Shown piece after piece: positions 2,633 to 23,228 of a DNA stretch of 32,000 bases. Position numbers and translations under genes: made by a program. The DNA lies in assembly GCF_000022265.1 (NCBI RefSeq), contig NC_011979.1, positions 270,001 through 302,000 on the forward strand, read 5' to 3'. The first letter of the stretch is position 1. Every line of letters begins with the position of its first letter. The DNA comes from Geotalea daltonii FRC-32 (GTDB lineage: Bacteria > Desulfobacterota > Desulfuromonadia > Geobacterales > Geobacteraceae). The notes below the pieces were generated by a model. The model ran no database searches, was not told the DNA's origin, and worked only from the letters and a program-made list of their open reading frames with translations.

Positions 2633-4009
2633 ATGACAACAAACGCGCAGACAAAACCCTCCGTAAGCTTTACCCAATGGTGCGACAGCTTGTCGTTCAA
2701 CAGGTTTCACGCCATGGTCATGGCACTCGCCGCCCTGATCCTGGTCTTCGACGGTTACGACGCCCAGATCATCGCCTATGTCATGCCGCAACTGGTCAAG
2801 GAATGGCACCTGACCCCGGTGGAGGCTGGTTCCATGGCCTCCTACGGTTTCATCGGTCTCATGATCGGCGCGGCCGGCTTCGGCACCTTCGCCGACAGGC
2901 TTGGCCGCAAGAAGGGAGTGATGATCGCCTTGGTCGTATTCTCCGTCTTCAGCGGGGCGGCTTACTGGGCGCCCAATTTCAAGGTGTTCTGTCTCCTTCG
3001 TTTTCTCGCCGGCATCGGCATGGGGGGCGCGATGCCCCTGACCATTACGCTGGTGACGGAATTCGCCCCTGCCAAGGCACGGGCCAAGGCGGTAAGCGCC
3101 ATGTTTGCCGGATTTACCCTGGGATGGGGCGTTGCGGCACTGGTGGCCATGGTCGGCATACCTGCCTTGGGATGGCGGATGGTGCTTCTTTTCGGTTTTC
3201 TGCCGGTGCTTATTCTTCCCCTTCTGCAGAAGGCCCTGCCGGAGTCGGTGCGCTTCCTGGCATCGAAAGGGCGTCACGAGGAGGCGATACTTGAAATACA
3301 GCGGATGGAAAAAGCCGCAGGACTGCCACCGGCTGCGTGGACCAAGGAGTCGTTTCAAACCGGACCGGTGGAGCCAGGCAGCAGCCTGACCCAGCTTTTC
3401 TCTCCCGGATTTTCATTCATGACACCGCTCATCTGGGCAACTTACTTCCTGAACCTCCTGGTGGTCTACGGGCTGGCTACCTGGCTCCCATCGCTTCTCG
3501 TCAAGGCAGGGTTTTCCCTGGTCAAGAGTTACAGTTTCGGCATGGTCCAGGCAATAGGCGCTTCCCTCGGCGGCTTTCTTCTCGGCTGGATGATGGACCG
3601 ATTCGGCCGGAAGAGCGCTCTGATCTTTGCCTACATGGCCGGAGGGGTTGTCGTAGCCCTGTTCGGCACAGTATCGAGCAATACGGCCTTGTATATCATC
3701 GGCGCAGCAACGGGTGTCTTCGTCATCGGAGCGCAAATAGCCCAACATGTGGTGACCGGCGAACTCTATCCGACCAGCATCCGTTCCACCGGGGTTGGCT
3801 ATGCCCTCACCGCGGGCCGTCTCGGTTCGATTGCAGGCCCCTTGCTGGGCGGAGCGCTCCAGATGGCCGGCGTTACCTTCAGCCAATACTTCCTGATCTT
3901 CGCGGTTCCCAGCTTCCTGTGCGCCGGACTGGTCTATTTGTATCGGGTCAATGTGAAAGACGAAGGACTTGAAACAGTCCATGAAAGACTGGTATCCGTT
4001 GAGGAGTAG
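2633..4009 (+). CDS. MFS transporter, aromatic acid:H+ symporter (AAHS; PcaK/BenK-like) family
   Basis: 458 aa and highly hydrophobic, with about 12 predicted TM stretches. DGYD motif in TM1, GRKKG loop 2-3 motif, GAGAGGA SD 7 nt upstream. Confidence 0.85.
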   Translation: MTTNAQTKPSVSFTQWCDSLSFNRFHAMVMALAALILVFDGYDAQIIAYVMPQLVKEWHLTPVEAGSMASYGFIGLMIGAAGFGTFADRLGRKKGVMIALVVFSVFSGAAYWAPNFKVFCLLRFLAGIGMGGAMPLTITLVTEFAPAKARAKAVSAMFAGFTLGWGVAALVAMVGIPALGWRMVLLFGFLPVLILPLLQKALPESVRFLASKGRHEEAILEIQRMEKAAGLPPAAWTKESFQTGPVEPGSSLTQLFSPGFSFMTPLIWATYFLNLLVVYGLATWLPSLLVKAGFSLVKSYSFGMVQAIGASLGGFLLGWMMDRFGRKSALIFAYMAGGVVVALFGTVSSNTALYIIGAATGVFVIGAQIAQHVVTGELYPTSIRSTGVGYALTAGRLGSIAGPLLGGALQMAGVTFSQYFLIFAVPSFLCAGLVYLYRVNVKDEGLETVHERLVSVEE

Positions 4010-4151
4010 GTAATCGCTTCATTGCCACCTGTCCTCGGCTGTGCCGGGGGCAGGTGCACCTGTCGCGGAAACAGCGGCGGCCCCGCCTGGGCTGCTATAG
4101 TGGCCTGTAATTCTTGCCCTCCTGCTGTTGTGTTCCACAAAAACAGTGGCG

Positions 4152-4166
4152 TTTCATGTGACGAAA
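4152..4166. promoter_or_regulatory. Operator-like 15-bp near-palindrome TTTCAT-GTG-ACGAAA
   Basis: Matches the pattern TTYCRY-N3-RYGRAA that is also present at 5246, 19619 and 19793. It lies in the 210-bp spacer upstream of the first iclR gene. Confidence 0.3.
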
Positions 4167-4219
4167 TGCTATTACAAGGGGAAACGCCGGGTGACTGGCA
4201 GGAAGGTCGACAGGTGCCG

Positions 4220-5023
4220 ATGACCGAAAACAACTCCCCCACCAAGATCAAGGAAGACGAAAAATACAACATTCGCGCCATCGAGCGCGCCCTTTCAGTG
4301 CTGGAAGCCTTTTCCATCGAGCGCCGCAAGCTCTCCCTCGATGAACTCACCAAGCTGATCGGGCTTTCCAAACCCACCGTCTTTCGCATCCTTTCTACAT
4401 TGCAGAGCAGGAAATTTATTTATCTGGACAAAGGCGACGGGCGCTATCGGCTGGGCTCTGTTTTTCTCACCCTCGCCTCTGCGGTCCACGGTTCATCCGG
4501 TCTCGGCGCCATTGCCCGCCCGCATCTGACCACATTGCGCAATTCCACACAGGCGACGGTCCTTCTTGGCGCCCTCCTGGAGGATCACCTTGTCTATCTG
4601 GACAAGACCGAGGGACGCGGGCCGGTCCGCCTGGCCAACGACATCGGCTGGCGGCGCGATCCTGCCCATTACGGCATGCTGGGCATGACGCTCATGGCCT
4701 TCCTTGATCCCGCCGAGGCCGAACGTCTGCTGGATGAGTTTCCCCTTGCTCCGTATACCGAAAAATCCCTGAATGATCGGCTGCTCTTCCTTAAACGCCT
4801 TGATGACATACGGCGGCTCGGTTATGCCCTGGAGTTCGAGGAGGCGATAGATGGCGTCTGGGGCGTCGCCGCTCCGGTTTTGAATGCGGCAGGAGAGATC
4901 ATCGCTGCCGTCGGGGCTGCCCTGTCCATGTCTGCCTGCAGCGACGAACGCATTGCCGATACCATTAACAGCGTCACCGCCTGTGCCGGGGCTATTTCTT
5001 CGGATCTTGGCCACAGGCGATAA
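4220..5023 (+). CDS. IclR-family transcriptional regulator
   Basis: Start taken at MTENNSPTKIKEDEKYNIRAIERALSVLEAF. The upstream 66 codons of ORF 4022..5023 are Cys/Gly/Pro-rich and non-protein-like. N-terminal wHTH (LSLDELTKLIGLSKPTVFRILSTL) plus an IclR effector domain. An alternative start at 4166 is possible. Confidence 0.85.
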   Translation: MTENNSPTKIKEDEKYNIRAIERALSVLEAFSIERRKLSLDELTKLIGLSKPTVFRILSTLQSRKFIYLDKGDGRYRLGSVFLTLASAVHGSSGLGAIARPHLTTLRNSTQATVLLGALLEDHLVYLDKTEGRGPVRLANDIGWRRDPAHYGMLGMTLMAFLDPAEAERLLDEFPLAPYTEKSLNDRLLFLKRLDDIRRLGYALEFEEAIDGVWGVAAPVLNAAGEIIAAVGAALSMSACSDERIADTINSVTACAGAISSDLGHRR

Positions 5024-5195: not shown

Positions 5196-5223
5196 TTGAC
5201 AACTTCGTGGCAGCGTGGATAAT
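5196..5223 (+). promoter_or_regulatory. Sigma-70-like promoter candidate (TTGACA-16 nt-GATAAT)
   Basis: TTGACA at 5196-5201 and GATAAT at 5218-5223, in an AT-rich 410-bp spacer upstream of the first bamB-like gene. A second perfect TATAAT sits at 5241-5246. Confidence 0.4.
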
Positions 5224-5436: not shown

Positions 5437-7419
5437 ATGAAGTACGCAGAGACAGGCTTTGCATTGGAAGTCGATCTGACTAGAGGAAATATCGAAAAAG
5501 TCCCCACCGACCCGAAGATGACCGGGCTCCATTTGGGTGGGGACGGTGTTGCCGCTGCCATTCTTTGGGAACGGGTGCCACCTGAGGTTGCCCCACAATC
5601 ACCCGCCAACCTGCTCATTTTCAGCGCCGGTCTTCTGGCAGGCACACCGATCCCCGGCGCCAATCGTACCTGTGTCAGCAGCATCAGCCTTCAATCGAAC
5701 CTCCTCGTAAATGCGAACTTTGAAGGGTTTTTCGCGCCGGAGCTGAAACATGCGGGCTATGACAGGGTCGTCATCCGCGGCAAGTCGACCAGCTTAGTTT
5801 ATTTGTGGATTCACGACGACAAGGTGGAGATCTGTGATGCCAGCCATCTCCAGGGGAAGAGCGCCATGGAGACCACAGCCATTCTCCGCAAAGAGTTGAA
5901 GGACCCCAACGTCCAGGTGGCCACCATTGGCGTGGCCGGGGAAAACAAGGTCTCCCAGGCGAGCATTGAACATGCCAACAGCAGTGCTTCCCAAGGGCTT
6001 GGCGTGATAATGGGGGATAAGGGCCTGAAGGCCATAGCGGTCCGCGGCACAAAGGATCTGGGCATTGCCCGGCCGGATGAGCTTTTCGCACGTTGCAACG
6101 CGCTCTATGGGGAGATCTACGATAACCCGTCCTGTGGCGATCTCCTGTTGAGCGAGCACGATAATGCCTGGCATGTGGCCAACCTCCCCTGGACCGCAGC
6201 AGGCGAACGGGTCAAGGGGTTCTGGACGCCGGAGCTTGGACAGGAATGGGGAGTGCGTGTCGAACGGGAAGAGATCGGCTACCAGTGGGAAAACTATAGT
6301 CAGGAAATGGAAGAGGTACGAGAGACGGTTGTCGAGGAAAGCAAGCTAGTGCGCGGCACCGGCTGCTACAACTGCCCCAAGAATTGCCATAAGGTCCTGT
6401 CCCTGCCGGGCGAGCGCCAGTATTTTCTCAAGTCCTACAGCAGGCATGTTTACGCCATGGCTGCCTATGGAGACCTGAAGCTCAACTACGACGTTCTTTA
6501 CGCCATGCAGGATTTTGGTCTGGATGAAAACGCCATGGTACAACTGTTCGCCTTCGTCCAGGACCTGCATCAAGCCGGCATTTTCACAGACAGTGATTTG
6601 CCCGATTTTCCGGCCGATCCTATTGGCCGATACCTCTACATACTGGAAAAGGTAGCAAACCGTCAGGGTATCGGAGCTATTCTTGCCGAGGGTCTTTGCC
6701 AAGCAGCAGGCCAGATTGGCAAGGGTGCGGAAGCATATGTCCGGGGAGTGAAAAAGACAGCACAGCTCCCCCTTAGGTGGAAAACTGCCAATTACGCATC
6801 TTTCCTCATGTATGCCGCCGGGGACAAGATGGATATCAGCCAGGTTGAAGGCTCCTTCCCTCAATTGCCGATACCCGACAGGAAAGAGAGGGAGGCGTTT
6901 GTCAAGGTCTGGGATGCAGCTCCCCAAAGGTTCAAGGAGTGGTTCCTGGATTGGGAGCCGGAGCAGCAGTTTTCTATTGAGGCCGCGGCAGAGATTGTTG
7001 GCTGGAATGAGGCCATGCATTATGCGGATGACATCCTGGGGATCTGTCCCCTGCTGTCGTCCTTCAGGGGCCAGTTTGGCGGCAAGCCTCCCTATCACCT
7101 GAACAACCTGCCGCAGCTCGTTTCGCTGGCGACCGGCATCGAGTTGGATGTGGCCGGCCTGCTGGAAATATCCCGCCGAAACCGGCAGCTGATCAGGGCC
7201 TTAAATGCCGGAAGAGGTCAGAGACGGGCCGATGACGAATTCCCTGCAGAACTCTGGGAGAACAGGGATACCGCAATGGAGCAGCAACACCTTGACGCGT
7301 ATTACTCATTCATGGGATGGACTGCCGAAGGGATCCCGACCCGAGAGACATTGACCGGTGCGGGACTGGACCACGTAAGCAAGGTTTTGATGGCACGAGG
7401 GCTCCTGACGGGAGAATAG
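5437..7419 (+). CDS. BamB-like tungsten/pterin aldehyde:ferredoxin-oxidoreductase-family protein, divergent paralog 1 (Ser at the position where paralog 2 has Cys)
   Basis: Start at MKYAETGF (GGAAGGGG SD upstream), which matches the MRYAETGF start of paralog 2. CYNCPKNC (CxxCxxxC) cluster motif and a later conserved Cys (DDILGICPLLSSF). FLKSYSRH aligns with FLKCFNKL of paralog 2. About 25 extra residues precede the Cys motif. Confidence 0.88.
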   Translation: MKYAETGFALEVDLTRGNIEKVPTDPKMTGLHLGGDGVAAAILWERVPPEVAPQSPANLLIFSAGLLAGTPIPGANRTCVSSISLQSNLLVNANFEGFFAPELKHAGYDRVVIRGKSTSLVYLWIHDDKVEICDASHLQGKSAMETTAILRKELKDPNVQVATIGVAGENKVSQASIEHANSSASQGLGVIMGDKGLKAIAVRGTKDLGIARPDELFARCNALYGEIYDNPSCGDLLLSEHDNAWHVANLPWTAAGERVKGFWTPELGQEWGVRVEREEIGYQWENYSQEMEEVRETVVEESKLVRGTGCYNCPKNCHKVLSLPGERQYFLKSYSRHVYAMAAYGDLKLNYDVLYAMQDFGLDENAMVQLFAFVQDLHQAGIFTDSDLPDFPADPIGRYLYILEKVANRQGIGAILAEGLCQAAGQIGKGAEAYVRGVKKTAQLPLRWKTANYASFLMYAAGDKMDISQVEGSFPQLPIPDRKEREAFVKVWDAAPQRFKEWFLDWEPEQQFSIEAAAEIVGWNEAMHYADDILGICPLLSSFRGQFGGKPPYHLNNLPQLVSLATGIELDVAGLLEISRRNRQLIRALNAGRGQRRADDEFPAELWENRDTAMEQQHLDAYYSFMGWTAEGIPTRETLTGAGLDHVSKVLMARGLLTGE

Positions 7420-7470
7420 GGGCAGACCCATGTGTTTGCCCAACCCATGGCGCACACGCGGGTGCGCCCC
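7419..7470. repeat. REP-like double hairpin in the bamB'-bamB spacer
   Basis: GGGCAGAC-ccatgt-GTTTGCCC (7420-7441) and GGCGCAC-acgcgg-GTGCGCC (7449-7468). This resembles the GC-rich extragenic palindromes common in deltaproteobacterial-type genomes. Confidence 0.4.
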
Positions 7471-7537
7471 TACACGACAAAAGGACATTCTGAACGCGGC
7501 GTCGAGTGCAGACATCAACAAACGGAAGAGGTAGACA

Positions 7538-9451
7538 ATGAGGTACGCAGAGACTGGGTTTAATTTAGAGGTTGATCTGTCACAGGGAACCGTGAAGAGG
7601 GTGCCGACCGACCGGAAATTGTCCGAGCTCCACCTGGGGGGACAGGGAACGGCCGCAAGGATACTATGGGATCGCGTTCCGCCGGAAACCGATCCTCTTT
7701 CCCCCGAAAATATACTCATCTTCAGCACGGGGCTCCTCCATGGCACCCCGGTGCCCGGTGCCAACCGCACCTCCGTCAGCACCTTTTCCCCCCTGACCGG
7801 GCTTTATGTCAATTCGCTGATGGGGGGGTGGTTCGGGCCGGAACTGAAATTTGCCGGCTATGACAAAATCATCATCAGCGGCGAATCACCCAGTCTGGTC
7901 TATCTCTACATCAACAACGACACGGTCGAGATCCGAGATGCAGGCCATCTTCAGGGCAAGGGTTGCCAGGAGGTCGCAACCCTGCTGCAGAAAGAACTGA
8001 AGGAGCCGAAGCTACAGGTCGCAGCCATCGGGCTGGCAGGTGAAAACAAAGTGTTTCAGGCCACCATCGAACATGCCAACTCCAGCGCATCCCGTCACGG
8101 GGTGGGCGCGGTCATGGGGGCCAAACGGCTGAAGGCGATTGCGGTACGCGGGACAAAGGATGTGTATGTTTCCGGTGCGGCAGAGCTCTGGGAATTGTGT
8201 CGCGGCAAGTATCAGGAAATTTATGATAACAAGAACTGCGGCGACCCCATGGCCCATGACCACAATGAAAGTTTCCATGTGGACAACTTTGCCTGGGGCA
8301 ATGCACGCACCCGGAGAAAAGACTATTGGAACAAAGAGCGCGAGGAACAGTGGGTGGGGCTCTGGAAAGAGGTCCGCACCCGTGATTCCGGCTGCTACAA
8401 CTGTCCGAAGGATTGCCACTACACCATCTCCTATCCGGGGCGCCATACCTATTTTCTCAAGTGCTTCAACAAGCTTACCTACAGCATGGCAGCCTTCGAG
8501 GAGATCGACTTCAATTACAACATCCTGGGGCTGACCAGCGCCTATGGCATGGATGGGTTTTCAACGCCTCAGGTGCTTGCCTTTGCCATTGAGCTCTACG
8601 AGGCGGGCATACTGACCGAGAAGGATCTTCCTGATTTCCCTGCCGACGGTGCGGGAAGGTTCTTCTATCTCCTGGACAAAGTCGTGCATCGTGAAGGGAT
8701 CGGCGACGTGCTGGCCAATGGCGTCTATCAGGCCGCCCGTATAATAGGCAAAGGTGCCGAGGCATACGACCACAACACTACGAAAAAGGTTGAGCAGGTG
8801 CCGCTCAAGCTGGGTGTGGTCAATTACCCTTTCTTCCTCATGTACTGCACCGGCGAAAAGATGAACATCACCCAGATCGAAGGCTCCTTTCCCCAGGCCC
8901 CCATTGCCAATCCGGAAAAGCGCAGGAAATTTGTCGAGAATTGGTCCGCCGCGCCGGAGCGGTTCAAGAAATGGCTGCTGGAGTGGGAGCCAAAGCAGCA
9001 CATGCCCATTGAGGCCTCGGTTAATGTCTGTGACTGGAACGAGGCGATGCACTACGTGGACGATGCCATCGGCACCTGTGCGTGGCTGTCGTCCTTCCGC
9101 GGGCAGTTCGGCGGGTCCCCTCCATATCATCTGTTCAACCTCCCCCAGATCATCGGGCTGGCGGCCGGTATCGAGCTCGATTCCGACGGGCTCCTGGAAA
9201 TATCCAGAAGGAATCGCAACCTGGTGCGGGCACTCAACATCAGAAGAGGACTGAGGCGGAATGTGGAGAAGCCGCCGGAGGACCATTGGAAGATACGGGA
9301 CCCCGAGATGGAACAGAAGCACCTGGACGCCTATTACGAGTTCAAGGGGTGGACCAGTGACGGTATCCCCACCAGGGAGACGCTGGACCGATTGCAGCTT
9401 CAGTATGTGAGCGAAGACTTCATCGCTCGGGGAATCCTGCCGGCCGCCTGA
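7538..9451 (+). CDS. bamB: BamB-type subunit of class II benzoyl-CoA reductase (W-pterin, [4Fe-4S]), paralog 2
   Basis: 637 aa, GGAAGAGG SD. Closely tracks G. metallireducens BamB as I recall it: MRYAETGF..EVDL, GANRT, IEHANSSAS, NFAWGNARTRRKDYW, CYNCPKDC, FLKCFNKLTYSMAA, LMYCTGEKMNITQIEGSFPQAP, DDAIGTCAWLSSF, GWTSDGIPTRETL. Confidence 0.9.
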   Translation: MRYAETGFNLEVDLSQGTVKRVPTDRKLSELHLGGQGTAARILWDRVPPETDPLSPENILIFSTGLLHGTPVPGANRTSVSTFSPLTGLYVNSLMGGWFGPELKFAGYDKIIISGESPSLVYLYINNDTVEIRDAGHLQGKGCQEVATLLQKELKEPKLQVAAIGLAGENKVFQATIEHANSSASRHGVGAVMGAKRLKAIAVRGTKDVYVSGAAELWELCRGKYQEIYDNKNCGDPMAHDHNESFHVDNFAWGNARTRRKDYWNKEREEQWVGLWKEVRTRDSGCYNCPKDCHYTISYPGRHTYFLKCFNKLTYSMAAFEEIDFNYNILGLTSAYGMDGFSTPQVLAFAIELYEAGILTEKDLPDFPADGAGRFFYLLDKVVHREGIGDVLANGVYQAARIIGKGAEAYDHNTTKKVEQVPLKLGVVNYPFFLMYCTGEKMNITQIEGSFPQAPIANPEKRRKFVENWSAAPERFKKWLLEWEPKQHMPIEASVNVCDWNEAMHYVDDAIGTCAWLSSFRGQFGGSPPYHLFNLPQIIGLAAGIELDSDGLLEISRRNRNLVRALNIRRGLRRNVEKPPEDHWKIRDPEMEQKHLDAYYEFKGWTSDGIPTRETLDRLQLQYVSEDFIARGILPAA

Positions 9452-9507: not shown

Positions 9508-10044
9508 ATGAGCGATCAGCCAAAGAAGAAGATGGTCAAGGAAGTAAAGGTGGATCTTGATAAATGCATCGGGTGCCGTGCCTGCGAGGTGGCATGCTCC
9601 GGGTTTCATGCCAGCCCCAAATACAGCAGCTTCAACCCGGCCCGGTCCCGCATCCGGGTGGTCCAGGATCTGGTCAATGATGTCTATGTGCCGCTACGGG
9701 CCGCTGAATATACGCCGGCCGAGTGCACGGGCAGACAGACCTTCAAGATCCATGGCAAGCAATACAGCGAGTGCAACTTCTGCCCGGCTTCCTGCCCTTC
9801 GCGGGACCTGTTCAAGGAGCCCGATTCCGGCCTCCCCCTGAAATGCGACATGTGTGAGGAGGAAGAAACGCCCCTGTGTGTCCAGGTTTGCCGACCCGGC
9901 GCCTTGACCTATGAAGTGCGTGAAGAGGAACGGGCTGAGGAAGAACCTGCATTGGGTGAGGTGGAGGTAGGACTGAAATCCCTGCTCCACAAGCATGGAG
10001 CCCAAAAGGTGCTGGATACCATCGCCCGCCTGCAGAATGACTGA
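9508..10044 (+). CDS. bamC: BamC-type poly-[4Fe-4S] ferredoxin subunit
   Basis: 178 aa, CIGCRACEVAC plus further Cys clusters (CNFCPASCP, CDMCEEEETPLCVQVCRPG), AAGAGGA SD. Sits directly after bamB, as in known bam clusters. Confidence 0.85.
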   Translation: MSDQPKKKMVKEVKVDLDKCIGCRACEVACSGFHASPKYSSFNPARSRIRVVQDLVNDVYVPLRAAEYTPAECTGRQTFKIHGKQYSECNFCPASCPSRDLFKEPDSGLPLKCDMCEEEETPLCVQVCRPGALTYEVREEERAEEEPALGEVEVGLKSLLHKHGAQKVLDTIARLQND

Positions 10045-11216
10045 TGCACAAAAAGGAACTGAAAGTGGAAACTGTTGCTCCATTTAAAGAGATCATCGAT
10101 GTCATCAAGGAAGAAGGCGGAGATCCCTTCAAGTTCTGTTACCAGTGCGGCAAGTGCGATTCCGTCTGCCCATGGAATCGAGTTCGCACCTTCAGTATGC
10201 GCAAACTGGTCCGTCAGGCCAGTCTGGGACTGACGGAGATCGAAAGCGAAGACATCTGGCGCTGCAGTACCTGCGGCAGGTGTCCCCAGAACTGCCCGAG
10301 GGGTGTGAAACAGATCGAATCGGGGGTAGCTTTACGCAGGATCGCCACCCAGAACGAGGTGTTTCCTGCCGCCGTGGAGCCGCTGCGCACGGTGAGCGTG
10401 GGGCTGATGGGAGAAGGAAACCCTTTCAATGACGAGCGGAAGAACAGGGGGGACTGGGCGCAGGGATTGTCGGTCAAACCCTTTACCAAGGAGATGGAGG
10501 TCCTTTATTTCTCCTGTTGCTACCTGAGCTATGCCCCCAGGTTGAAAAAGGTGGCTGCTGCCACGGCGAACGTCCTCAACAAGGCCGGGGTGAAATTCGG
10601 CATTCTCGGCGAAAGAGAGAACTGCTGCGGGGAAAGCATCCGCAAGACCGGCAACGAGGAGCTTTTCACCAAGCTGGCCAAGGAGAACATCCAGAACTTC
10701 ATCGATAACGGCGTCAAAAAGATCCTCGTTTCCTCCCCCCACAGCTACCATACCTTCAAAAACGAGTATCCCGAATTCATGGTTAACTTCGAAGTCGTCT
10801 ACGTCACCGATTACCTGAACCAGTTGATCAAGGACGGCAGGCTGAAACTCAGCAAGGAATGCCCAAAGAAGGTCACCTATCACGATCCCTGTTACCTTGG
10901 GCGCCACAACGGCATCTATGACCAGCCGCGGGAGATCCTGAAGCGGATAGCCGGGTTGGAGCTGGTGGAGATGGCCGATTCACGGGAAAACAGCCTCTGC
11001 TGCGGCGGGGGAGGCGGCAGAATATGGGTGGAAACGCCGAAAGAAGAGCGTTTTTCAGACCTGCGCGTGGGACAGGCGGTCAGTGTGGGGGCCGAGGTGC
11101 TCGCCACCTCCTGCCCCTATTGCATTACCAATTTTGAGGACAGCAGGCTCTCCCTCGATGAGGGGGTGGTCCTGGAAATCAAGGATATCACGGAGATTCT
11201 CGAGGAGCTGATGTAG
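10044..11216 (+). CDS. bamD: BamD-type HdrD-like subunit (2x[4Fe-4S] plus two CCG domains)
   Basis: CYQCGKCDSVCP and CSTCGRCPQNCP ferredoxin motifs, with CCGES and CCGGGGG (CCG-domain) motifs. The start ATG overlaps the bamC stop (TGATG), suggesting translational coupling. Confidence 0.9.
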   Translation: MHKKELKVETVAPFKEIIDVIKEEGGDPFKFCYQCGKCDSVCPWNRVRTFSMRKLVRQASLGLTEIESEDIWRCSTCGRCPQNCPRGVKQIESGVALRRIATQNEVFPAAVEPLRTVSVGLMGEGNPFNDERKNRGDWAQGLSVKPFTKEMEVLYFSCCYLSYAPRLKKVAAATANVLNKAGVKFGILGERENCCGESIRKTGNEELFTKLAKENIQNFIDNGVKKILVSSPHSYHTFKNEYPEFMVNFEVVYVTDYLNQLIKDGRLKLSKECPKKVTYHDPCYLGRHNGIYDQPREILKRIAGLELVEMADSRENSLCCGGGGGRIWVETPKEERFSDLRVGQAVSVGAEVLATSCPYCITNFEDSRLSLDEGVVLEIKDITEILEELM

Positions 11217-11240
11217 AAAAATTCATGGAGGCTGACTTTT

Positions 11241-11317
11241 CCCCCTCACCCTCTCCCACTAGGAGGAAAGGGGATTTGAGCCCCTCTTTCTTCGATGGGA
11301 GTGGCCGGGGGAGGGTG
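11241..11317. repeat. Compound imperfect palindrome (REP-like) just after bamD
   Basis: Outer arms CACCCTCTCCCACT / GGGAGTGG..GGGGGAGGGTG and inner arms GAAAGGGG / CCCCTCTTTC, a C-run/G-run hairpin architecture. Confidence 0.45.
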
Positions 11318-11371
11318 TACGGTGTGGCTTCTAAACCCAAATAGCAAATTAAGGTTCTTCAGACATTTTCA

Positions 11372-11551
11372 GGGAAAGCAGTCGTGGCATCGGGAGAGAG
11401 TGACGAGCTACAGCGGCGAGCGGACACCCGCCGCATGTGGAACGGAGGCAGCCTATCAAATTTCAGCATCGTGTGCCCTCATGAGGACGGCACCGCAAGG
11501 TCCGCAGCTGTGGCGACAGAGCGAACGGACGATGTCGCGACTGCCTTTTTT
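11372..11551 (+). ncRNA. Candidate structured RNA / structured 5' leader of bamE (unknown family)
   Basis: A 15-bp closing helix pairs 11378-11392 with 11530-11544 and includes 2 G-U pairs that pair only on the + strand. Nested inside are an 8-bp helix (11407-11414 / 11507-11514), a GC hairpin (11416-11434, ACAC loop), a 5-bp helix (11436-11440 / 11502-11506) and a hairpin (11473-11493). A T6 tract at 11546-11551 follows the closing helix. No convincing ORF or SD. Confidence 0.25.
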
Positions 11552-11604
11552 CACAGAATTACCGGATGAACCAAACTAAAGGGATGCTTACGGTGGGAAA
11601 TGAC

Positions 11605-14600
11605 ATGGCACAAAAAAAATTCATAGACGTTCTCGTGGTCGGCGGCGGTATCAGCGGTATCCAGGCTGCACTCGATCTTGCCAATAGCGGCTTCAAGGTC
11701 TATCTGGTCGATAAGGCGCCGGCCATCGGCGGCAAGATGTCGCAGCTGGACAAGACCTTCCCCTCCAACGACTGCTCCATGTGCATCGAATCTCCCAAGT
11801 TCAACGAATGCAGCAGGCATCCCAACATCGAGATCCTGACCTATACGGCGGTGGAGAGCGTCAAGGGAAAGGCGGGGAACTTCAAGGTCACCCTGGTGAA
11901 GAAGCCGCGCTACGTTGTGGAGGAGAAGTGCACGGGGTGCAACCTCTGCGTGGAATACTGCCCGGCCAAGGTCCCTGACAGGTACAACCAGAATATTTCC
12001 GACAACAAGGCCATCCATATCCATTTTTCCCAGGCACTGCCGCTGATTCCGTATGTGGACCCGGAGGCATGTCTTTATCTTAAAGACGGCTCGTGCACCA
12101 TTTGCGTGGGGGTTTGCAAACCAAACGCCATCGACCTCCATCAGGAAGAAGAGCTGATGGAAGTGAACGCAGGGGCCATCGTCCTCGCTCCCGGCTTCGA
12201 GACCTTTGACCCCAAGCTCAGGAGCGACTACGGTTACGGTGTCTTCGAGAATGTGGTGACCAGCCTGGACTACGAGCGGATTCTCAGTTCCACCGGTCCC
12301 TACGAGGGGACGATCAGCCGTCCCTCGGACAAGAAACATCCCCACAAAATCGCCTGGATCCAGTGTGTCGGCTCTCGCCAGGTGAATCCAGAGGGGGGGA
12401 ACAGCTACTGCTCGGCGGTCTGCTGTGCCTATACCCAGAAGCAGGTGATTCTCACCAAAGATCATGACCCCGGCATGGAAGCCACCATCTTCCACAACGA
12501 CATCCGCGCCTTCGGCAAGGAATTCGAGCGTTTCTACCAGCGGGCCGAAAAGCTCTCCGACGTGCGCTTCATCAGAAGCTACGTCTCCATCGGCAGGGAG
12601 AACCCGGAAACCAGGAACGTCAGCATCCGCTATTCCACCTTCGACCAGGGGGTGAAGGAAGAAGAATTCGATATGGTGGTCCTCTCGGTTGGCCTCAACC
12701 CGCCGGCCGACGTCCAGACCATGGCCACCACCTTCGGTATCGAGCTCAACGAGTACGGCTTCTGCAAAACCAGGCCCGGCAACGCCATTGAAACCACCCG
12801 TCCCGGCATTTATGTGAGCGGCGCCTTTACCGGCCCGGCCGATATTCCAGAATCGGTGGTGACTGCCGGCGGCGCCAATGCCCTGTGCAGCGAACTCCTC
12901 TCCTATCGGCGCGGCGACCTTTCCCGGGAGCGGGTATATCCACCGGAGAAAGATGTAGCTAAAGAAGAGATCAGGATCGGCGTGGTCGTCTGCCTGTGCG
13001 GCGCCAACATCGGCCGGGTGGTGGATACCCCCGCCGTGGTCGAATATGCCGCCGGTCTCCCCAACGTGGTCTACGCCGAGCGCAACATGTTTGCCTGTTC
13101 CACGGAAAACGCCCAGCTCATAGCGGATGCCATCGTCGAGCACAACCTGAACCGCGTGGTGCTGGCAGCCTGCACCCCCCGGACCCACGAACCGCTCTTT
13201 CGGGATACCTGCCGGGAAGCGGGGTTGAACCAGTACTATTTCGAATTCGCCAACATCCGGGAGCACTGCTCCTGGGTCCACTCCAAGGACAAGGAAGGCG
13301 CCACCGAAAAGGCCAAGGACATCGTCCGCATGGCCGTGGCCAGGGCAGCCCACCTGGAGCCGCTGCAGGAGTTCCAGCTGCCGGTGAACAAGACTGCCCT
13401 GGTGGTTGGGGGTGGCATTGCCGGCATGACCAGCGCCCTGAGCATGGCCAACATCGGTTTCCAGGTGCATCTGGTTGAGAAGGAATCCGACTTGGGGGGA
13501 ATGGCCCGCCGGCTCCACTACACTTTGGACGGGCTTGAGGTTCAGCCCCTTTTGGACGACCTGGTCCGCAAGGTATACCGCCACCCGCTGATTCACATCT
13601 CCCTTGACGCCACCATCACTGACGTATCCGGCTATGTGGGAAACTTTGTCACCACTGTCATCTCCGAAGGACGTCGCCGGGAGATCGCCCATGGCGCCGC
13701 CATCCTCGCCACCGGCGCCGATGAATACAAGCCCACGGAATACCTCTACGGGCAGAACGACCAGGTTCTTACGTCCCTTGAACTGGAGGAGCGGATCGCC
13801 AAGGGGGACGAACAGACCCTGGGTGCCCAGACCCTGGTCATGATCCAGTGTGTCGGCTGCCGGGAAGAATGGAAGAACTACTGCAGCCGTGTCTGCTGCA
13901 GCCAGTCCATCAAGAACGCCCTGAAGCTCAAGGAACTCAACCCGGAGATGGAGATCTACGTCATCTACCGGGACATGAGGACCTACGGATTCAGGGAAGA
14001 CTACTACCGGGAAGCCGCCAACAAAGACGTGAAATTCATCCGCTATGAGCCCGCCGGCAAACCCCTGGTTGAAGCAGCCACGGAGGGGGGGCGCCCCATC
14101 ATTCGGGTAACCGTACCGGACCCGGTTCTCGGCCAGAAGCTGGCCATAGATGCCAATCTGCTGGTCCTTGCCGCTGCCGTTGTCCCGTCGGCCGCGAGCC
14201 AGGAGATGGCCAAGCTGTTCAAGGTGGCCATGAACACGGACGGCTTCTTTCAGGAGGCCCATGTCAAGCTGCGGCCGGTCGATTTCGGCGCCGACGGCAT
14301 CTTCCTCTGCGGCCTTGCCCACTATCCGAAACATATCACGGAGACCATCAGCCAGGCATACGGTGCTGCCGGCCGCACGGTCAACCTGCTCACCCGCGAC
14401 TCGGTCACCGCCTCCGGTGCGGTCTGCGATGTGACCAGGAGCAACTGCGTGGCGTGCGCGGCCTGCATTACCGCCTGTAAATATGATGCCATAGAACTGG
14501 TCGACACACCTTTTGGCAAGGAGGCCACGGTGAATCCGGCCCTGTGCAAGGGAGACGGCTTGTGCAACACCAAGTGCCCGACCGGTGCCATCTACCTGAA

Positions 14601-14661
14601 GCACTACACGAACCAGGAGATTTGGTCCCAGATCGATGCGGCGACGCCGGGGTGGGAGTGA
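11605..14661 (+). CDS. bamE: BamE-type subunit: two fused HdrA-like FAD/FeS modules plus ferredoxin domains
   Basis: Two dinucleotide-binding motifs (VVGGGISGIQAALDLA, VVGGGIAGMTSALSMA). HdrA-like Cys motifs (SYCSAVCCAY, NYCSRVCCSQ). 4Fe-4S motifs (CTGCNLCVEYCP, CVACAACITAC, CKGDGLCNTKCP). Start chosen at MAQKKFIDVLVVGGG; upstream in-frame ATGs at 11566 and 11584 lack a well-spaced SD. No in-frame TGA. Confidence 0.9.
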   Translation: MAQKKFIDVLVVGGGISGIQAALDLANSGFKVYLVDKAPAIGGKMSQLDKTFPSNDCSMCIESPKFNECSRHPNIEILTYTAVESVKGKAGNFKVTLVKKPRYVVEEKCTGCNLCVEYCPAKVPDRYNQNISDNKAIHIHFSQALPLIPYVDPEACLYLKDGSCTICVGVCKPNAIDLHQEEELMEVNAGAIVLAPGFETFDPKLRSDYGYGVFENVVTSLDYERILSSTGPYEGTISRPSDKKHPHKIAWIQCVGSRQVNPEGGNSYCSAVCCAYTQKQVILTKDHDPGMEATIFHNDIRAFGKEFERFYQRAEKLSDVRFIRSYVSIGRENPETRNVSIRYSTFDQGVKEEEFDMVVLSVGLNPPADVQTMATTFGIELNEYGFCKTRPGNAIETTRPGIYVSGAFTGPADIPESVVTAGGANALCSELLSYRRGDLSRERVYPPEKDVAKEEIRIGVVVCLCGANIGRVVDTPAVVEYAAGLPNVVYAERNMFACSTENAQLIADAIVEHNLNRVVLAACTPRTHEPLFRDTCREAGLNQYYFEFANIREHCSWVHSKDKEGATEKAKDIVRMAVARAAHLEPLQEFQLPVNKTALVVGGGIAGMTSALSMANIGFQVHLVEKESDLGGMARRLHYTLDGLEVQPLLDDLVRKVYRHPLIHISLDATITDVSGYVGNFVTTVISEGRRREIAHGAAILATGADEYKPTEYLYGQNDQVLTSLELEERIAKGDEQTLGAQTLVMIQCVGCREEWKNYCSRVCCSQSIKNALKLKELNPEMEIYVIYRDMRTYGFREDYYREAANKDVKFIRYEPAGKPLVEAATEGGRPIIRVTVPDPVLGQKLAIDANLLVLAAAVVPSAASQEMAKLFKVAMNTDGFFQEAHVKLRPVDFGADGIFLCGLAHYPKHITETISQAYGAAGRTVNLLTRDSVTASGAVCDVTRSNCVACAACITACKYDAIELVDTPFGKEATVNPALCKGDGLCNTKCPTGAIYLKHYTNQEIWSQIDAATPGWE

Positions 14662-14685
14662 GAACAAATAACCAAGATGTAAAGT

Positions 14686-14792: not shown

Positions 14793-15560
14793 ATGACAGC
14801 AGCCCTTGAATTTAAACCGCGGGTCGTCGGTTTTTTGTGCACGTGGTGAGCGTACGGCGCTGCCGACCTGGCTGGAGTTTCCAGACTGCAATATACAACT
14901 GAAACAAAGATCATCCGCGTGATGTGCTCGGGCAGGGTCGACCTGGACTTTGTGCTGCGCGCCTTTTCCCGGGGTGCCGACGGGGTATTCATTGGTGGCT
15001 GCTGGCTTGGCGAGTGCCATTATGTCACCGAAGGCAATTACGATGCCCTGAGCATGATGCACCTGGCCAAGAGAGTCCTCGAAGAGGTAGGAATCAATCC
15101 CGACCGGCTGCGTCTCGAATGGGTTTCCGCCTCAGAGGGGATGCGCTACGCCGAGGTGATGAACGACTTCGGTCGCAGACTGAAGGAACTGGGGCCGATC
15201 GGTTCCAGCGAGGGCATAGAAAAAGAGGCCCTGAAGCTGAAATTTGCCGCAGTGAAGAAGATACTCCCCTTCCTCAAGCTGGTTGAACGGGAGCGGTTGC
15301 GGGTACGGTTTAAGACGGAAGAAGAATATACGAAATTCTTCAGTAGCCCGGAGGTGGATGCCCTGATCCGTGGGGTGATCGCCGAAAATCTGGCCATCAG
15401 CCAGATTCTCACGCTCCTGGGGAGAAAACCGCTGACGACCAGGCAAATTGCCGAGGTGTTGAGGCTGGAGCCGGCGGAGGTGGCAAGATGCCTCAATGTT
15501 TCATCGCAACAGGGCTTGATCCGCTACAACGAAACCGAGAAACGCTATGCCGTCGCCTGA
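14793..15560 (+). CDS. bamF: BamF-type MvhD/FlpD-like subunit, selenocysteine-containing (TGA at 14847-14849 read as Sec)
   Basis: The ATG at 14793 (AGGAGAA SD at about 14781-14787) is in frame with ORF 14919..15560. Read-through gives MTAALEFKPRVVGFLCTW-U-AYGAADLAGVSRLQYTTETKIIRVMCSGRVD, which matches the MvhD signature CxWCxYxGADxAG with Sec at the second Cys. Sec in BamF is reported for G. metallireducens (from memory). Confidence 0.8.
14855..14886 (+). promoter_or_regulatory. Candidate SECIS hairpin(s) downstream of the bamF UGA
   Basis: CGGC-gcu-GCCG (14855-14865) starts 6 nt after the UGA. GGCUGGA-guu-UCCAGAC (14870-14886) has one G/A mismatch and a GUU apical loop. I cannot tell which one, if either, is functional. 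Confidence 0.3.
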
Positions 15561-15602
15561 TCCGACCGGTGACGGGGCTAAATGAGAAAAGAGGGCACGA
15601 CT

Positions 15603-16055
15603 ATGGACAGGGACAGGATTGACCAGATTATCGACACCCATGGCTGCAAAGCCAGTTCGCTCATTCAGATATTGATTGCCATCCAGAGTGAAAACCACTG
15701 GCTCCCCAAGGAAGTTCTGGAACGGGTCAGCGAGCGACTGAACGTACCCATGAATCAGATCCAGCATATCACCACCTTTTACAAGTCGTTCAGCCTGGTC
15801 CCCAAGGGGCGTCACGAGGTCCATGTCTGCATGGGAACCGCTTGCCATGTCCGTGGTGCCCAGGGTGTTCTCGATACCGTTGAAGATGTGACCGGTATCA
15901 AGCCGGGAGAGACCGACGTCGATCTCAAGTTCAGCCTGGAAACCGTCAACTGCATCGGCTGCTGTGCCCTCGGACCGGTAATGGTGGTGGATGGCGATTA
16001 CCACGGTAACCTGGCCGCAACCCAGGTGGAAGACGTGTTGAAAACCTACGAGTAA
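15603..16055 (+). CDS. bamG: BamG-type NuoE/HoxE-like [2Fe-2S] subunit
   Basis: CMGTACHVRGA...CIGCCALGP thioredoxin-like 2Fe-2S motif. Start at MDRDRIDQ is preceded by AAGAGGG; an in-frame ATG at 15582 is an alternative. Confidence 0.85.
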   Translation: MDRDRIDQIIDTHGCKASSLIQILIAIQSENHWLPKEVLERVSERLNVPMNQIQHITTFYKSFSLVPKGRHEVHVCMGTACHVRGAQGVLDTVEDVTGIKPGETDVDLKFSLETVNCIGCCALGPVMVVDGDYHGNLAATQVEDVLKTYE

Positions 16056-16064
16056 GGGAAGGCC

Positions 16065-17978
16065 ATGGCAAAGATAAATTCGACTGTCGAGTTCGAAGCA
16101 TTGAGGAAGGAAATCCTGTCGTCCAGGGATCCGAACCGCCCCTGCATTGCCGTATGCACCGGCTCCGGTTGCCTTGCCCTCGGCGCCGCCAAACTGGTGG
16201 CCGCCTTGAAAAGCGAAATCAAGGAGCAGGGGCTGGAACAGAGGATCGAAGTAAGGGAAACCGGTTGTCCCGGCTTCTGCGAGCGGGGTCCCCTGATCGT
16301 CATCTACCCGGAGGAGACCTGCTATCTCAAGGTGCAGCCGACTGACGCCAAAGAGGTCATCGCCAGCGTCATGGAGAAGAAGATCATCGACCGGCTGCTC
16401 TATGTGGATCAGGTGACCGGTGAGCGGGTCGTCCATGAGATGGATATCCCCTTTTACAAGAATCAGTTGCGGCTTTTGATCGGCAACAACATCAAGCTCG
16501 ACCCGACCAGCATCGACGACTACATCGCCATCGGCGGTTACACTGCCTTGGAAAAAGCTGTCTGCCAGATGAAGCCGGAGCAGGTGGTGGGGCTGGTGAA
16601 GGAATCGGGGCTTCGGGGGCGCGGTGGTGGCGGCTTTCCCTCGGGGAACAAGTGGGAATTCACCCGCAATGCACCTGATCCGGTGAAATACGTGGTTGTC
16701 AACGCCGACGAGGGTGACCCCGGGGCATTCATGGACCGGGCGCTGTTGGAGGGGAGCCCCCATGCGGTCCTGGAAGGGCTCATTATCGGCGCCTATGCCA
16801 TCGGCGCCCATGAAGGTTTTCTCTACGTGCGTCAGGAATACCCCCTGGCCGTGCACAATATCACCCTCGCCATCCAGAAGGCTGAGGAATATGGCTTCCT
16901 GGGGAAAAATATCCTGGGATCGGGCTTCGATTTCACGGTGGAGGTGGCCCAAGGGGCAGGCGCCTTTGTCTGCGGCGAAGAAACAGCCTTGATCCGCTCC
17001 CTGGAGGGGAAGACGGGGGAGCCGAAACCGAGACCCCCTTTTCCTGCCGTGAGGGGGCTGTGGAACAAACCGACCAACATCAACAACGTGGAGACCTGGG
17101 CCAATATTCCTCTTATTATCAACAAGGGCCCGGCCGCCTTCGCTTCCGTAGGCACCGGGGGGAGCAAAGGCACCAAAATATTCTCCCTGGTGGGCAAGGT
17201 CAAGAACACCGGGCTGGTTGAAGTGCCCATGGGGATAACCCTGCGGGACATCGTCTACAAGATCGGCGGCGGCATTCCCGGAGAGAAGAAGTTCAAGGCG
17301 GTGCAGACCGGTGGCCCGGCGGGGGGGTGCATGCCCGAATCGCTCCTGGACATGGAGGTCGATTTCGACCAGCTCACCAAGGCCGGCTCCATGATGGGGT
17401 CCGGCGGCATGATCGTCCTCGATGAAGAGACCTGCATGGTGGATTTCGCCAGGTTTTTCCTCTCCTTTCTGGCAGAAGAGTCATGCGGCAAATGTGTCCC
17501 CTGCCGCGAAGGCATTCAACAGATGCTTGCCATCCTGAATGACCTGACCCATGGGAAAGGGAAAAAGGGTGACCTGGAGCTTCTGGAGCAGCTTACCGAG
17601 GTTTCCAGCGCCTCGTTGTGTGCCCTGGGCAAGGGTGCACCGAACCCGGTGCTGAGCACCCTGAAACATTTCCGGGATGAATATCAGGCCCACATGGAGG
17701 GGAAATGCCCTGCCTTCACCTGCAAGAGCCTCTTCTCCTACTATATTGAGCCGGAGAAGTGCCAGGCATGCACGAGCTGCGGCAAAAAATGCCCGGCAGG
17801 GGCGATTGAAGGGGGAAAGAACCAGATCCACATGGTCGACCAGGCAAAATGCACCAAGTGCGGGGCCTGCCTGCAGGCCTGCCCCCCCCGCTTCGCAGCG
17901 GTGACGCGGATACTGGGCGAGGTAGTCCCACCCCCATTGCCGGAAGAGGCGAGAACAATAGTCAGGGGGAGCAAATAG
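16065..17978 (+). CDS. bamH: BamH-type NuoF/HoxF-like FMN/NAD(P)H subunit with N-terminal 2Fe-2S domain and C-terminal 2x[4Fe-4S] domain
   Basis: GRGGGGFPSGNKW (NuoF nucleotide/FMN motif), ESCGKCVPCREG (N3-type cluster), C-terminal CQACTSCGKKCP and CTKCGACLQACP. AAGGGAAGG SD. Confidence 0.9.
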   Translation: MAKINSTVEFEALRKEILSSRDPNRPCIAVCTGSGCLALGAAKLVAALKSEIKEQGLEQRIEVRETGCPGFCERGPLIVIYPEETCYLKVQPTDAKEVIASVMEKKIIDRLLYVDQVTGERVVHEMDIPFYKNQLRLLIGNNIKLDPTSIDDYIAIGGYTALEKAVCQMKPEQVVGLVKESGLRGRGGGGFPSGNKWEFTRNAPDPVKYVVVNADEGDPGAFMDRALLEGSPHAVLEGLIIGAYAIGAHEGFLYVRQEYPLAVHNITLAIQKAEEYGFLGKNILGSGFDFTVEVAQGAGAFVCGEETALIRSLEGKTGEPKPRPPFPAVRGLWNKPTNINNVETWANIPLIINKGPAAFASVGTGGSKGTKIFSLVGKVKNTGLVEVPMGITLRDIVYKIGGGIPGEKKFKAVQTGGPAGGCMPESLLDMEVDFDQLTKAGSMMGSGGMIVLDEETCMVDFARFFLSFLAEESCGKCVPCREGIQQMLAILNDLTHGKGKKGDLELLEQLTEVSSASLCALGKGAPNPVLSTLKHFRDEYQAHMEGKCPAFTCKSLFSYYIEPEKCQACTSCGKKCPAGAIEGGKNQIHMVDQAKCTKCGACLQACPPRFAAVTRILGEVVPPPLPEEARTIVRGSK

Positions 17979-17980
17979 CC

Positions 17981-18595
17981 ATGAGCGAACTGGTCTTACA
18001 AATAGATGGCAGAGAGGTTACGGTAAAGGAAGGTGCGACCATTCTCGAAGCAGCCGAGAGCGTGGGAATAGCCATTCCCACCCTTTGTCACCACCACAAG
18101 CTGGAACCCTATGGGGGGTGCCGGGTCTGCTCAGTGGAGGTGGAAGCCAACGGCAGGACGATGGTCGTTGCCGCCTGCACCTATCCGGCCGAAAAAAATG
18201 TCGTCGTGCGCACCCGGAGCGAAAAGCTTTCCAGGATTCGCCAGGCGCTGGTGGAGATGATGCTGGCCCATGCACCCGATTCGGAAAAACTGGTGGCGTT
18301 GGCTGAGGAGTATGGCGCAGACCGGGATCGGTTCAAAAGAAACCAGTCCTTCTGCATTCATTGCGGCCTTTGTGTACGCTACTGCACCGAGGTGAAGAAG
18401 AAAAATGCCCTGGGGTTCATCGACCGGGGCGCCAAAAAGAGGATCTGCTTCATTCCGAAAATAGCGGCCGCCGAATGCTGGAAGTGCAGGGAATGTTTTC
18501 CCCTCTGCCCCACCTCTGCGCTCCAGGCTGCCTTCGTTCTCACTGAAGGGATGACCGCGGCTGTACCGACTGAAGCGGCCGAATCCGGACGGTAA
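17981..18595 (+). CDS. bamI: BamI-type NuoG N-terminal-like FeS subunit
   Basis: Start at MSELVLQIDGREVTVKEGATILEAA, 2 nt after the bamH stop, with a GGGGGA SD. The 44-codon upstream extension of ORF 17849 overlaps bamH. 2Fe-2S ferredoxin fold (CHHHKLEPYGGCRVC) and CIHCGLCVRYC. Confidence 0.85.
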   Translation: MSELVLQIDGREVTVKEGATILEAAESVGIAIPTLCHHHKLEPYGGCRVCSVEVEANGRTMVVAACTYPAEKNVVVRTRSEKLSRIRQALVEMMLAHAPDSEKLVALAEEYGADRDRFKRNQSFCIHCGLCVRYCTEVKKKNALGFIDRGAKKRICFIPKIAAAECWKCRECFPLCPTSALQAAFVLTEGMTAAVPTEAAESGR

Positions 18596-21269: not shown

Positions 21270-21280
21270 TAAGACAGGCA

Positions 21281-21313
21281 GAAGGCTGAAGGTGATTCAT
21301 ATCCTCAGCCTTC
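21281..21313 (+). other. Intercistronic hairpin (possible attenuator or mRNA stabiliser)
   Basis: GAAGGCTGAAGG-tgattcatat-CCTCAGCCTTC, followed by an AT-rich stretch without a clean T-run. Confidence 0.3.
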
Positions 21314-21356
21314 AGAACAGATATTTATTACCTGATTCATTGAAAGGGGTTTTGTT

Positions 21357-23114: not shown

Positions 23115-23127
23115 TTCATGCACCAGG

Positions 23128-23158
23128 AAAGCCCCGGACGACACTGCCGGGGCTTTTT
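23128..23158 (+). terminator. Rho-independent terminator/attenuator after gcdA-like gene
   Basis: AAAGCCCCGG-acgacactg-CCGGGGCTTTTT, a GC stem followed by a T5 run, 14 nt after the stop. Confidence 0.7.
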
Positions 23159-23228
23159 GCCCATCGCCTGCTGAACGGTCATTTTTGAGTTGTTATTACT
23201 TTTAAACATATTGTGAAAGGAGCTGCAC

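Follow-up and report, generated by a model that had tools for sequence, protein, structure and literature searches.

The reduction of benzoyl-CoA by class II benzoyl-CoA reductase is among the lowest-potential reductions in biology, and its mechanism rests on a tungsten (W) center with Cys322 and an aqua ligand. In Geobacter metallireducens, the catalytic W subunit of this enzyme is BamB (PDB 4Z3W-4Z40), with Cys322 as the W ligand (PMC12096430), and a 2025 review describes the Cys ligand as conserved in all predicted BamB proteins (PMC12096430). The known complex has two BamB-BamC units per protomer, which are joined via BamC, and the two BamBs have no mutual contact (PMC12096430; also described in a preprint). 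Tandem arrangements of bamB were already recorded in 2007 by Butler et al. (PMC1924859). Here, we describe such a tandem in a 32,000-nucleotide (nt) stretch of the genome of Geotalea daltonii FRC-32 (the window; coordinates are window positions, and features lie on the + strand unless stated otherwise). The first gene, paralog 1 (5437-7419), encodes a BamB-like AOR-family protein of 660 amino acids (aa) that lacks the Cys ligand and belongs to a subfamily that we call B′; the second, paralog 2 (7538-9451), encodes a canonical BamB of 637 aa. Mapping of published quantitative reverse transcription-PCR (qRT-PCR) primers onto the window identified paralog 1 as Geob_0227 ("bamB3"; primers at 6124-6141 and 6304-6324) and paralog 2 as Geob_0228 ("bamB4"; one primer at 7588-7605). 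The product of paralog 1 is 100% identical to a G. daltonii protein (P0001) annotated as a putative benzoyl-CoA reductase W-binding subunit.

Both proteins match the Pfam families AFOR_N and AFOR_C (E-values of 4e-62 and 1e-44 for paralog 1); NCBIfam has no BamB model. They align end to end with 55% identity and one large gap, and are thus homologous over their full length, as the original prediction from the DNA sequence had it. The match to G. metallireducens BamB (4Z3W_A) scores 621 bits for paralog 1 and 797 bits for paralog 2. An AlphaFold2 model of paralog 1 (pLDDT 88.6, pTM 0.92) found 4Z3W_A as its best structural match in Foldseek, with a TM score of 0.87, and also matched 1AOR, 1B25, and others. 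Cys322 of 4Z3W aligns to Ser333 of paralog 1 (codon TCC, 6433-6435) and to Cys309 of paralog 2 (codon TGC, 8462-8464), and the distance from the last cluster Cys to this position is 16 residues in all three proteins. Since the spacing is identical and no gap intervenes, the assignment of Ser333 to the Cys322 column is unambiguous; the predicted replacement of the W-ligand Cys by Ser is correct, although the spacer between CxxCxxxC and FLK, given as 13 residues, is actually 12. Hence, the Cys322 thiolate ligand to W by which a BamB is recognized is missing from paralog 1, with Ser333 in its stead. Paralog 2 has the Cys ligand, the [4Fe-4S] Cys residues, His260, and bamC plus bamD to bamI downstream, and it carries the canonical residue at all tabulated key active-site and ligand positions. 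A further difference to which the original prediction had drawn attention, the Cys in LMYCTGEK of paralog 2, carries no meaning, as this column is Ala in 95/119 and Cys in 20/119 canonical BamBs. The conserved residues nearby are Thr451 and Glu453, for which paralog 1 has Ala and Asp.

The large gap in the alignment corresponds to an insertion in paralog 1 of 25 alignment columns (residues ~272-305; 6250-6351), in line with the predicted length of about 25 residues. The insertion, with a nearly invariant QWENYSQ-x2-EE-x2-E, was present in 83 of the 120 best homologs. For the comparisons below, the B′ set comprised 89 nonidentical insertion-bearing sequences and the canonical set 119 BamBs; genes derived from loci were added. 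In a neighbor-joining tree, B′ was monophyletic (89/89), and its sister was a canonical par2-like group of 112 sequences. The clade spans Geobacter, Geotalea, Desulfuromonadaceae, and Syntrophus. The Cys322 column is Cys in every canonical BamB (119/119); in B′, it is Ser in 49 sequences, Asn in 34, Cys in 4, Gly in 1, and Phe in 1. The four Cys-bearing members are short branched and nested within the B′ tree. Ser is encoded by TCC in the window and in a Syntrophus metagenome-assembled genome, by TCA in G. toluenoxydans, and by AGC or AGT in other Geobacter; the remaining codons are AAC and AAT (Asn), GGC (Gly), and TGC (Cys). Because the changes from TGC to TCC and from TGC to AGC are different mutations, Cys has been lost at least two times in B′. 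In total, the column requires at least 16 changes by Fitch parsimony and is more variable than 69% of the columns.

This pattern bears directly on the proposal, made in the original prediction, that Ser333 is a metal ligand. In the form considered here, W or Mo would be ligated by an oxygen of Ser333 (Asn in relatives), which would retune the redox potential. Ser and Asn, both of which have a potential oxygen donor, together account for 93% of the residues in the column, and in the structure the position coincides with that of Cys322. Members of the DMSO reductase family, to which such a site would be parallel, vary in their metal ligand among Ser, Cys, selenocysteine (Sec), and Asp. Within the Bam complex itself, cluster D4 of BamD is remodeled by a Cys-to-Ser change (preprint). 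Moreover, in benzoate-grown G. daltonii, in which bamB3 transcripts were quantified by qRT-PCR, the transcripts went up 4.5- to 5-fold with extra selenite or molybdate and down with extra tungstate, and bamB4 showed no rise (PMC13119186). However, in both precedents for a Cys replaced by Ser at a metal site, the replacement is fixed per subfamily, whereas it is unfixed in B′. Gly, Phe, and Cys also occur in the column, the changes are numerous, and both Ser codon families are used, whereas first-shell ligands are invariant in functional families, as is Cys in the canonical BamBs. An oxygen ligand is very improbable because a first-shell ligand would not vary as this column does. Judging by its variation, the Cys322 column of B′ is a site freed of constraint and not a new oxygen ligand.

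Two further ways in which the metal site might have been rebuilt were rejected. The first is another Cys at the metal: no B′-specific conserved Cys exists among the 89 members, which also answers the question, raised with the original prediction, of an alternative metal Cys in paralog 1. A Cys two residues past the ligand site (column 324; residue 335 of paralog 1) is found in only 20% of B′ (FLKSYCK) and not in paralog 1; two B′ members have both Cys residues (FMKCYCK). The second is a reversion to an AOR-type active site. In the alignment with the AOR of Pyrococcus furiosus (PfAOR), BamB Cys322 falls on E311, and Y312 and E313 of AOR fall on positions 323 and 324; position 324 is S, C, G, or A in B′ but never Glu. 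An origin of B′ as a tandem duplicate of its adjacent partner is likewise unsupported. The identity to stand-alone FQKCYSK-type BamBs reaches 76% for slowly evolving members of B′, compared to ~68% for the identity of B′ to its own partner, and B′ is therefore not a recent copy of its neighbor. A search of a representative library was uninformative, the entire B′ clade falling into one 50% cluster (P0065). Taken together, the data show that B′ is a distinct BamB-derived subfamily which has dispensed with the need for the W-ligating Cys, and that paralog 1 is not a BamB whose Cys ligand has been exchanged for a Ser ligand. We propose to recognize B′ by the hairpin motif, S142, Q174, E364, and a position directly upstream of bamB-bamC, all of which are found for paralog 1.

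Although the thiolate is gone, the cofactor-binding residues are retained in B′. The CxxCxxxC motif of the [4Fe-4S] cluster (Cys310, Cys313, and Cys317; 6364-6387) and the fourth cluster ligand, Cys537 (7045-7047), which lies in the DxxGxC pterin motif, are conserved in 89/89 sequences. In G. metallireducens numbering, Cys299, Cys302, Cys306, Cys534, D352, D528, G532, and K321 are present in all 89 members, and N76 and R77 are kept at 96 to 99%. Paralog 1 thus has the marks of the AOR/WOR family, that is, AFOR_N, AFOR_C, and the fold, the four [4Fe-4S] Cys residues, and, at the sequence level, the pterin/Mg motifs (N76-R77, GLD352, and D528xxxG532). His260, the proposed proton donor (PMC12096430), is found in 81/89 B′ members (91%). 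Of the proton-relay and Zn-site residues, His241 and His246 (equivalent to His255 and His260) are present in paralog 1, and Glu257 is replaced by Asn. R186 is Gln in paralog 1, and the Glu251 region is absent from it and likewise from the aligned par2-type canonical BamBs.

The differences from canonical BamB are concentrated elsewhere. Canonical BamBs share 207 positions with an invariance of 97% or more. Of these, 203 or more are retained in each canonical sequence, 171 in paralog 1, and 166 to 195 in B′ members (141 in the partial sequence P0079). G142, F264, R270, C322, T327, and N426 are almost wholly lost in B′. Four segments (255-279, 355-374, 420-450, and 589-613 in G. metallireducens numbering) are relaxed: there, the entropy of B′ exceeds that of canonical BamB by 1.0 to 1.6 bits, compared to ~0 to 0.3 bits elsewhere. 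Segment 1 (residues 241-265 of paralog 1; 6157-6231) is the active-site/proton-relay loop around His246 (= His260); F264, G267, N268, and R270 are lost from it. It carries Zn-site residues, and its counterpart in the alignment with PfAOR is the active-site region around Thr243. Segment 2 comprises residues 366-385 (6532-6591), segment 3 comprises residues 431-460 (6727-6816) and has lost H425, N426, K437, and L438, and segment 4, with the largest entropy excess over canonical BamB, comprises residues 596-620 (7222-7296). We infer that segments 2 to 4 line the benzoyl-CoA channel. In the relaxed segments, canonical residues give way to variable ones, and no fresh consensus has formed; of the basic residues, R270 is kept in 16%, H425 in 34%, K437 in 35%, and R603 in 44% of B′. 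In addition to the hairpin motif, B′ has gained its own invariants, namely, S142, Q174, G307, L323, R327, A338, and E364, the last of which directly follows the GLD pterin motif, at a position occupied by Gly in canonical BamBs. Measured by entropy, the loss of constraint in B′ is local, in four segments, and not global.

In the model of paralog 1, the clade-defining insertion forms a long two-stranded β-hairpin with strands at residues 274-285 and 290-301 (pLDDT 77 to 87). At its tip lies the QWENYSQ motif (6283-6303), which is 97 to 100% conserved in the 89 B′ sequences and absent from the 119 canonical BamBs. The hairpin is strongly acidic (its net charge averages −5.4 in B′), and its ratio of nonsynonymous to synonymous substitution rates (dN/dS) is 0 to 0.24. 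By these measures, it is very strongly constrained. In pairwise Nei-Gojobori comparisons of orthologs, dN/dS was 0.08 to 0.20 for B′ and 0.04 to 0.13 for the adjacent canonical BamB; within B′, it was 0.06 to 0.48 in the relaxed segments and 0.08 to 0.18 in the rest. The dN/dS pattern and the constraint on the hairpin indicate that B′ is a functional protein and not a decaying copy. The alternative that paralog 1 is a degenerating copy about to become a pseudogene would agree with a nonsynonymous rate (dN) that is typically 2 to 4 times that of the partner BamB and with the number of canonical invariants that the G. daltonii copy has given up. However, its reading frame is intact, the overall dN/dS is low, the hairpin is nearly invariant, the clade extends from Geobacter and Desulfuromonadaceae to Syntrophus, and paralog 1 is transcribed (PMC13119186). 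Decay or lack of expression, which the original prediction had named as grounds for abandoning its reading, is therefore effectively refuted.

A survey of tandem pairs was made with one genome per species (185,579 species) and gave 17 loci with a B′ gene, in Geotalea, Geobacter, Desulfuromonadaceae, and Syntrophus. Six further B′ contexts came from metagenome contigs, including two with Cys-bearing B′ members. Wherever the downstream DNA was readable, the window included, the B′ gene was located directly upstream of a Cys-bearing bamB, followed by a single bamC (23/23 genes); contig L005 ends ~650 nt past its B′ gene, and bamB is not callable there. In ten pairs, B′ and bamB overlap by 4 to 8 nt or are at most 15 nt apart, which suggests translational coupling. 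Other bamB genes at the same loci have their own bamC each. Several triads, including those at L081 and L082 to L085, stand alone without adjacent bamDEFGHI, and the conserved unit is therefore B′-B-C. The BamC of the triads is ordinary, with 12 Cys residues and normal length, and the only triad-specific features found in it were two substitutions (G32 and G131). In the window, paralog 1 is encoded with bamC and bamDEFGHI, as is typical of a BamB, but the bamC (9508-10044; Geob_0229), a single polyferredoxin gene that follows the pair as originally predicted, is shared with paralog 2.

Some loci have neighbors of their own. The triad at L081 (7001-15920) continues with genes for a DUF7479 protein, a methyltransferase, a C_GCAxxG protein, a radical SAM protein, and a CoA ligase; the triad at L085 adjoins two MoeA genes; and L007 and L010 have a bamH-like gene directly after bamC. 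Some B′ genes or partner genes appear to be fused, truncated, or frameshifted where the assembly is a draft or was made from long reads (L008, 8001-10499, encoding the 833-aa P0003; L001; and L039). These are probably assembly errors and not real fusions.

What, then, might B′ do? One possibility, and the main rival of the reading preferred below, is that it is an active enzyme whose metal site is free of Cys and resembles that of AOR, with four dithiolene sulfurs and, in addition, oxo, hydroxo, or aqua ligands. It would then convert another substrate, e.g., a substituted aryl-CoA or a non-CoA compound, and would obtain its electrons from the BamC that also serves canonical BamB. In most enzymes of the AOR family, W has no ligand from the protein (PMC12096430), all [4Fe-4S] and pterin-binding residues and, in 91% of the members, His260 are kept, and purifying selection acts everywhere in B′. 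The new invariants near the cofactor motifs (E364 directly after GLD352 as well as S142, Q174, and R327) point in the same direction, and variable pocket segments could mirror lineage-specific substrates. On the other hand, both the pocket loop and the column that once held the ligand vary within B′ without a re-fixed consensus, the second-shell Glu of AOR has not been regained (position 324 is S, C, G, or A), and several canonical basic residues are lost. An independent enzyme would leave the strict pairing with canonical bamB unexplained, and we regard a separate catalytic activity of B′ as rather unlikely.

We prefer a different reading, to which we would give an even chance: B′ may be a cofactor-bearing partner subunit of a B′-B-C module that no longer performs canonical benzoyl-CoA reduction, this being the task of paralog 2. 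B′ would be made together with canonical BamB and would assemble with it on a common BamC. Of the two BamB positions in the Bam(BC)2 module, B′ may occupy one, or it may dock via its hairpin; the layout of the known complex, with its BamBs joined only through BamC, would leave a place for a B′-C-C-B arrangement. There, B′ could act as a structural, electron-relay, or regulatory partner that bears cofactors, and the canonical hydrogen-atom-transfer reduction of benzoyl-CoA would be carried out by paralog 2 and not by B′. The suggestion that paralog 1 is a noncatalytic partner of paralog 2 is contained in the original prediction, and its direction is the best supported one, given the adjacency of the genes, the relaxation of the His260 loop and three other segments, and the retained cofactor residues; the partner role itself remains putative. 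Several observations weigh against a partner subunit of this kind. A single bamC for a pair of BamB-type genes is at odds with a simple 1:1:2 stoichiometry. The presence of His260 in 81/89 members and of all cofactor ligands goes beyond the needs of a purely structural subunit and would be in keeping with a redox or catalytic function. The relaxed segments, with dN/dS values of 0.06 to 0.48, do not evolve neutrally. Finally, bamB3 and bamB4 transcripts of G. daltonii differ in their response to Se and Mo (PMC13119186).

It is also imaginable, although we put this forward only tentatively, that the two proteins form a heteromeric class II module, an obligate pair of a BamB with its Cys ligand and a B′ that has the hairpin but no such Cys and still binds metallopterin and a [4Fe-4S] cluster. 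The second metal site, differing in coordination and potential, might then serve as an electron buffer, as a gate, or for a second activity, and the invariant acidic hairpin might be used for docking or gating. If it exists, such a module would be the first example in the AOR family of an enzyme with two distinct pterin subunits. The original prediction had also considered a different metal or redox potential for paralog 1; if a metal is still bound by B′, loss of the thiolate must alter the metal site.

The relation of B′ to the described systems can now be drawn more closely. With G. metallireducens BamB, it has the fold (TM 0.87), 46% identity by BLASTP, the [4Fe-4S] Cys motif, the pterin motifs, and the operon partners bamC to bamI in common. 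Unlike that protein, it is without the Cys322 ligand, carries the 25-residue acidic hairpin, has four relaxed segments including the His260 loop, and is always found beside a canonical BamB (23/23 readable loci). The nearest lineage to B′ is formed by paralog 2 and the stand-alone FQKCYSK-type BamBs of Desulfobacterales and other groups; in contrast to B′, these always have Cys at the ligand column, no hairpin, and their own bamC each. PfAOR and the AOR/WOR aldehyde oxidoreductases have no side-chain ligand to W, a condition that B′ would share if the cofactor is still bound. However, B′ has no equivalent of the second-shell Glu313 of PfAOR, is only ~25% identical to it, and is encoded in a Bam operon. 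Additional BamB paralogs are also known as the Gmet_1802 or bamB-2 type of G. metallireducens and G. bemidjiensis, which is benzoate induced; Gmet_1802 reportedly has the same length as the BamB Gmet_2087 and is 66% identical to it (PMC1924859). Unlike B′, this type is paired with its own bamC-2 and falls outside the B′ clade. The MMKC-type second BamBs at the loci examined all keep the Cys.

In a literature search, we found neither a BamB clade with a hairpin and without the Cys nor its obligate pairing described. B′ is therefore apparently an undescribed subfamily, although the tandem genes were already known and bamB3 was previously treated as a BamB homolog. Since B′ is conserved, under selection, and expressed and has dispensed with the Cys, the statement that this ligand is universal in BamB (PMC12096430) is incomplete. 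B′ may point to an undescribed heteromeric catalytic module in Geobacter, Geotalea, Desulfuromonadaceae, and Syntrophus. In practical terms, bamB serves as a functional marker gene and has been used in expression studies (as "bamB3" in G. daltonii), and B′ sequences should be neither counted nor interpreted as active sites of benzoyl-CoA reductase.

In the window, the gene pair is preceded by genes encoding a CoA ligase (723-2480), an MFS transporter (2633-4009), and an IclR-type regulator (4022-5023); the last is kept beside most B′-B-C triads. Between the regulator gene and paralog 1 lies a promoter-like site, TTGACA-16-GATAAT (5196-5223), which matches the consensus at 11 of 12 positions and is a consensus match only. 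Paralogs 1 and 2 are separated by a 118-nt spacer (7420-7537) in which the scan listed no terminator-like site. The spacer contains a GC-rich palindromic element resembling repetitive extragenic palindromes (GGGGCAGACCC…GGGTGCGCCCCTAC). Because both genes overlap or nearly abut in many other genomes, the element seems to have been inserted secondarily between two coupled genes.

Downstream of bamC follow bamD (10044-11216; HdrD-like), bamE (11566-14661; a fused HdrA-like protein), bamF (14793-15560; MvhD-like), bamG (15582-16055), bamH (16065-17978), and bamI (17849-18595). The Fer2_4 match of bamI starts at residue 49 of the open reading frame (ORF), and the real start is probably downstream of 17849. 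Codon 19 of bamF is an in-frame TGA (14847-14849; …GFLCTW-U-AYGAAD…), in agreement with Sec19 described for BamF of G. metallireducens (preprint); the mechanical ORF list gives only the part after the TGA (14919-15560). The spacer between bamD and bamE (11217-11565) is, with 350 nt, unusually long compared to ~130 nt in G. argillaceus (L004). It harbors an ORF (11295-11579) for 94 aa without a Pfam match and with a low-complexity translation, which is probably not a gene.

Downstream of bamI, the window continues with genes for glutaryl-CoA dehydrogenase, parts of glutaconyl-CoA decarboxylase, and β-oxidation enzymes. Adjoining the B′-containing bam cluster, the region 20112-25304 has an acyl-CoA dehydrogenase gene followed by carboxyltransferase and biotin-carrier genes. 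It looks like the route via a nondecarboxylating glutaryl-CoA dehydrogenase and a glutaconyl-CoA decarboxylase, the energy-conserving variant known from G. bemidjiensis and sulfate reducers. The OadA-like carboxylase subunit encoded here (23229-25304) has two tandem biotinyl/lipoyl domains (24762-25298), seen as a direct repeat of 264 nt with 72% identity and as two Biotin_lipoyl matches. Finally, very long ORFs run antisense on the − strand opposite the CoA ligase gene (795-2462, without a Pfam match) and opposite bamE (11551-14667); each resembles a shadow ORF, the coding sequence being GC rich.

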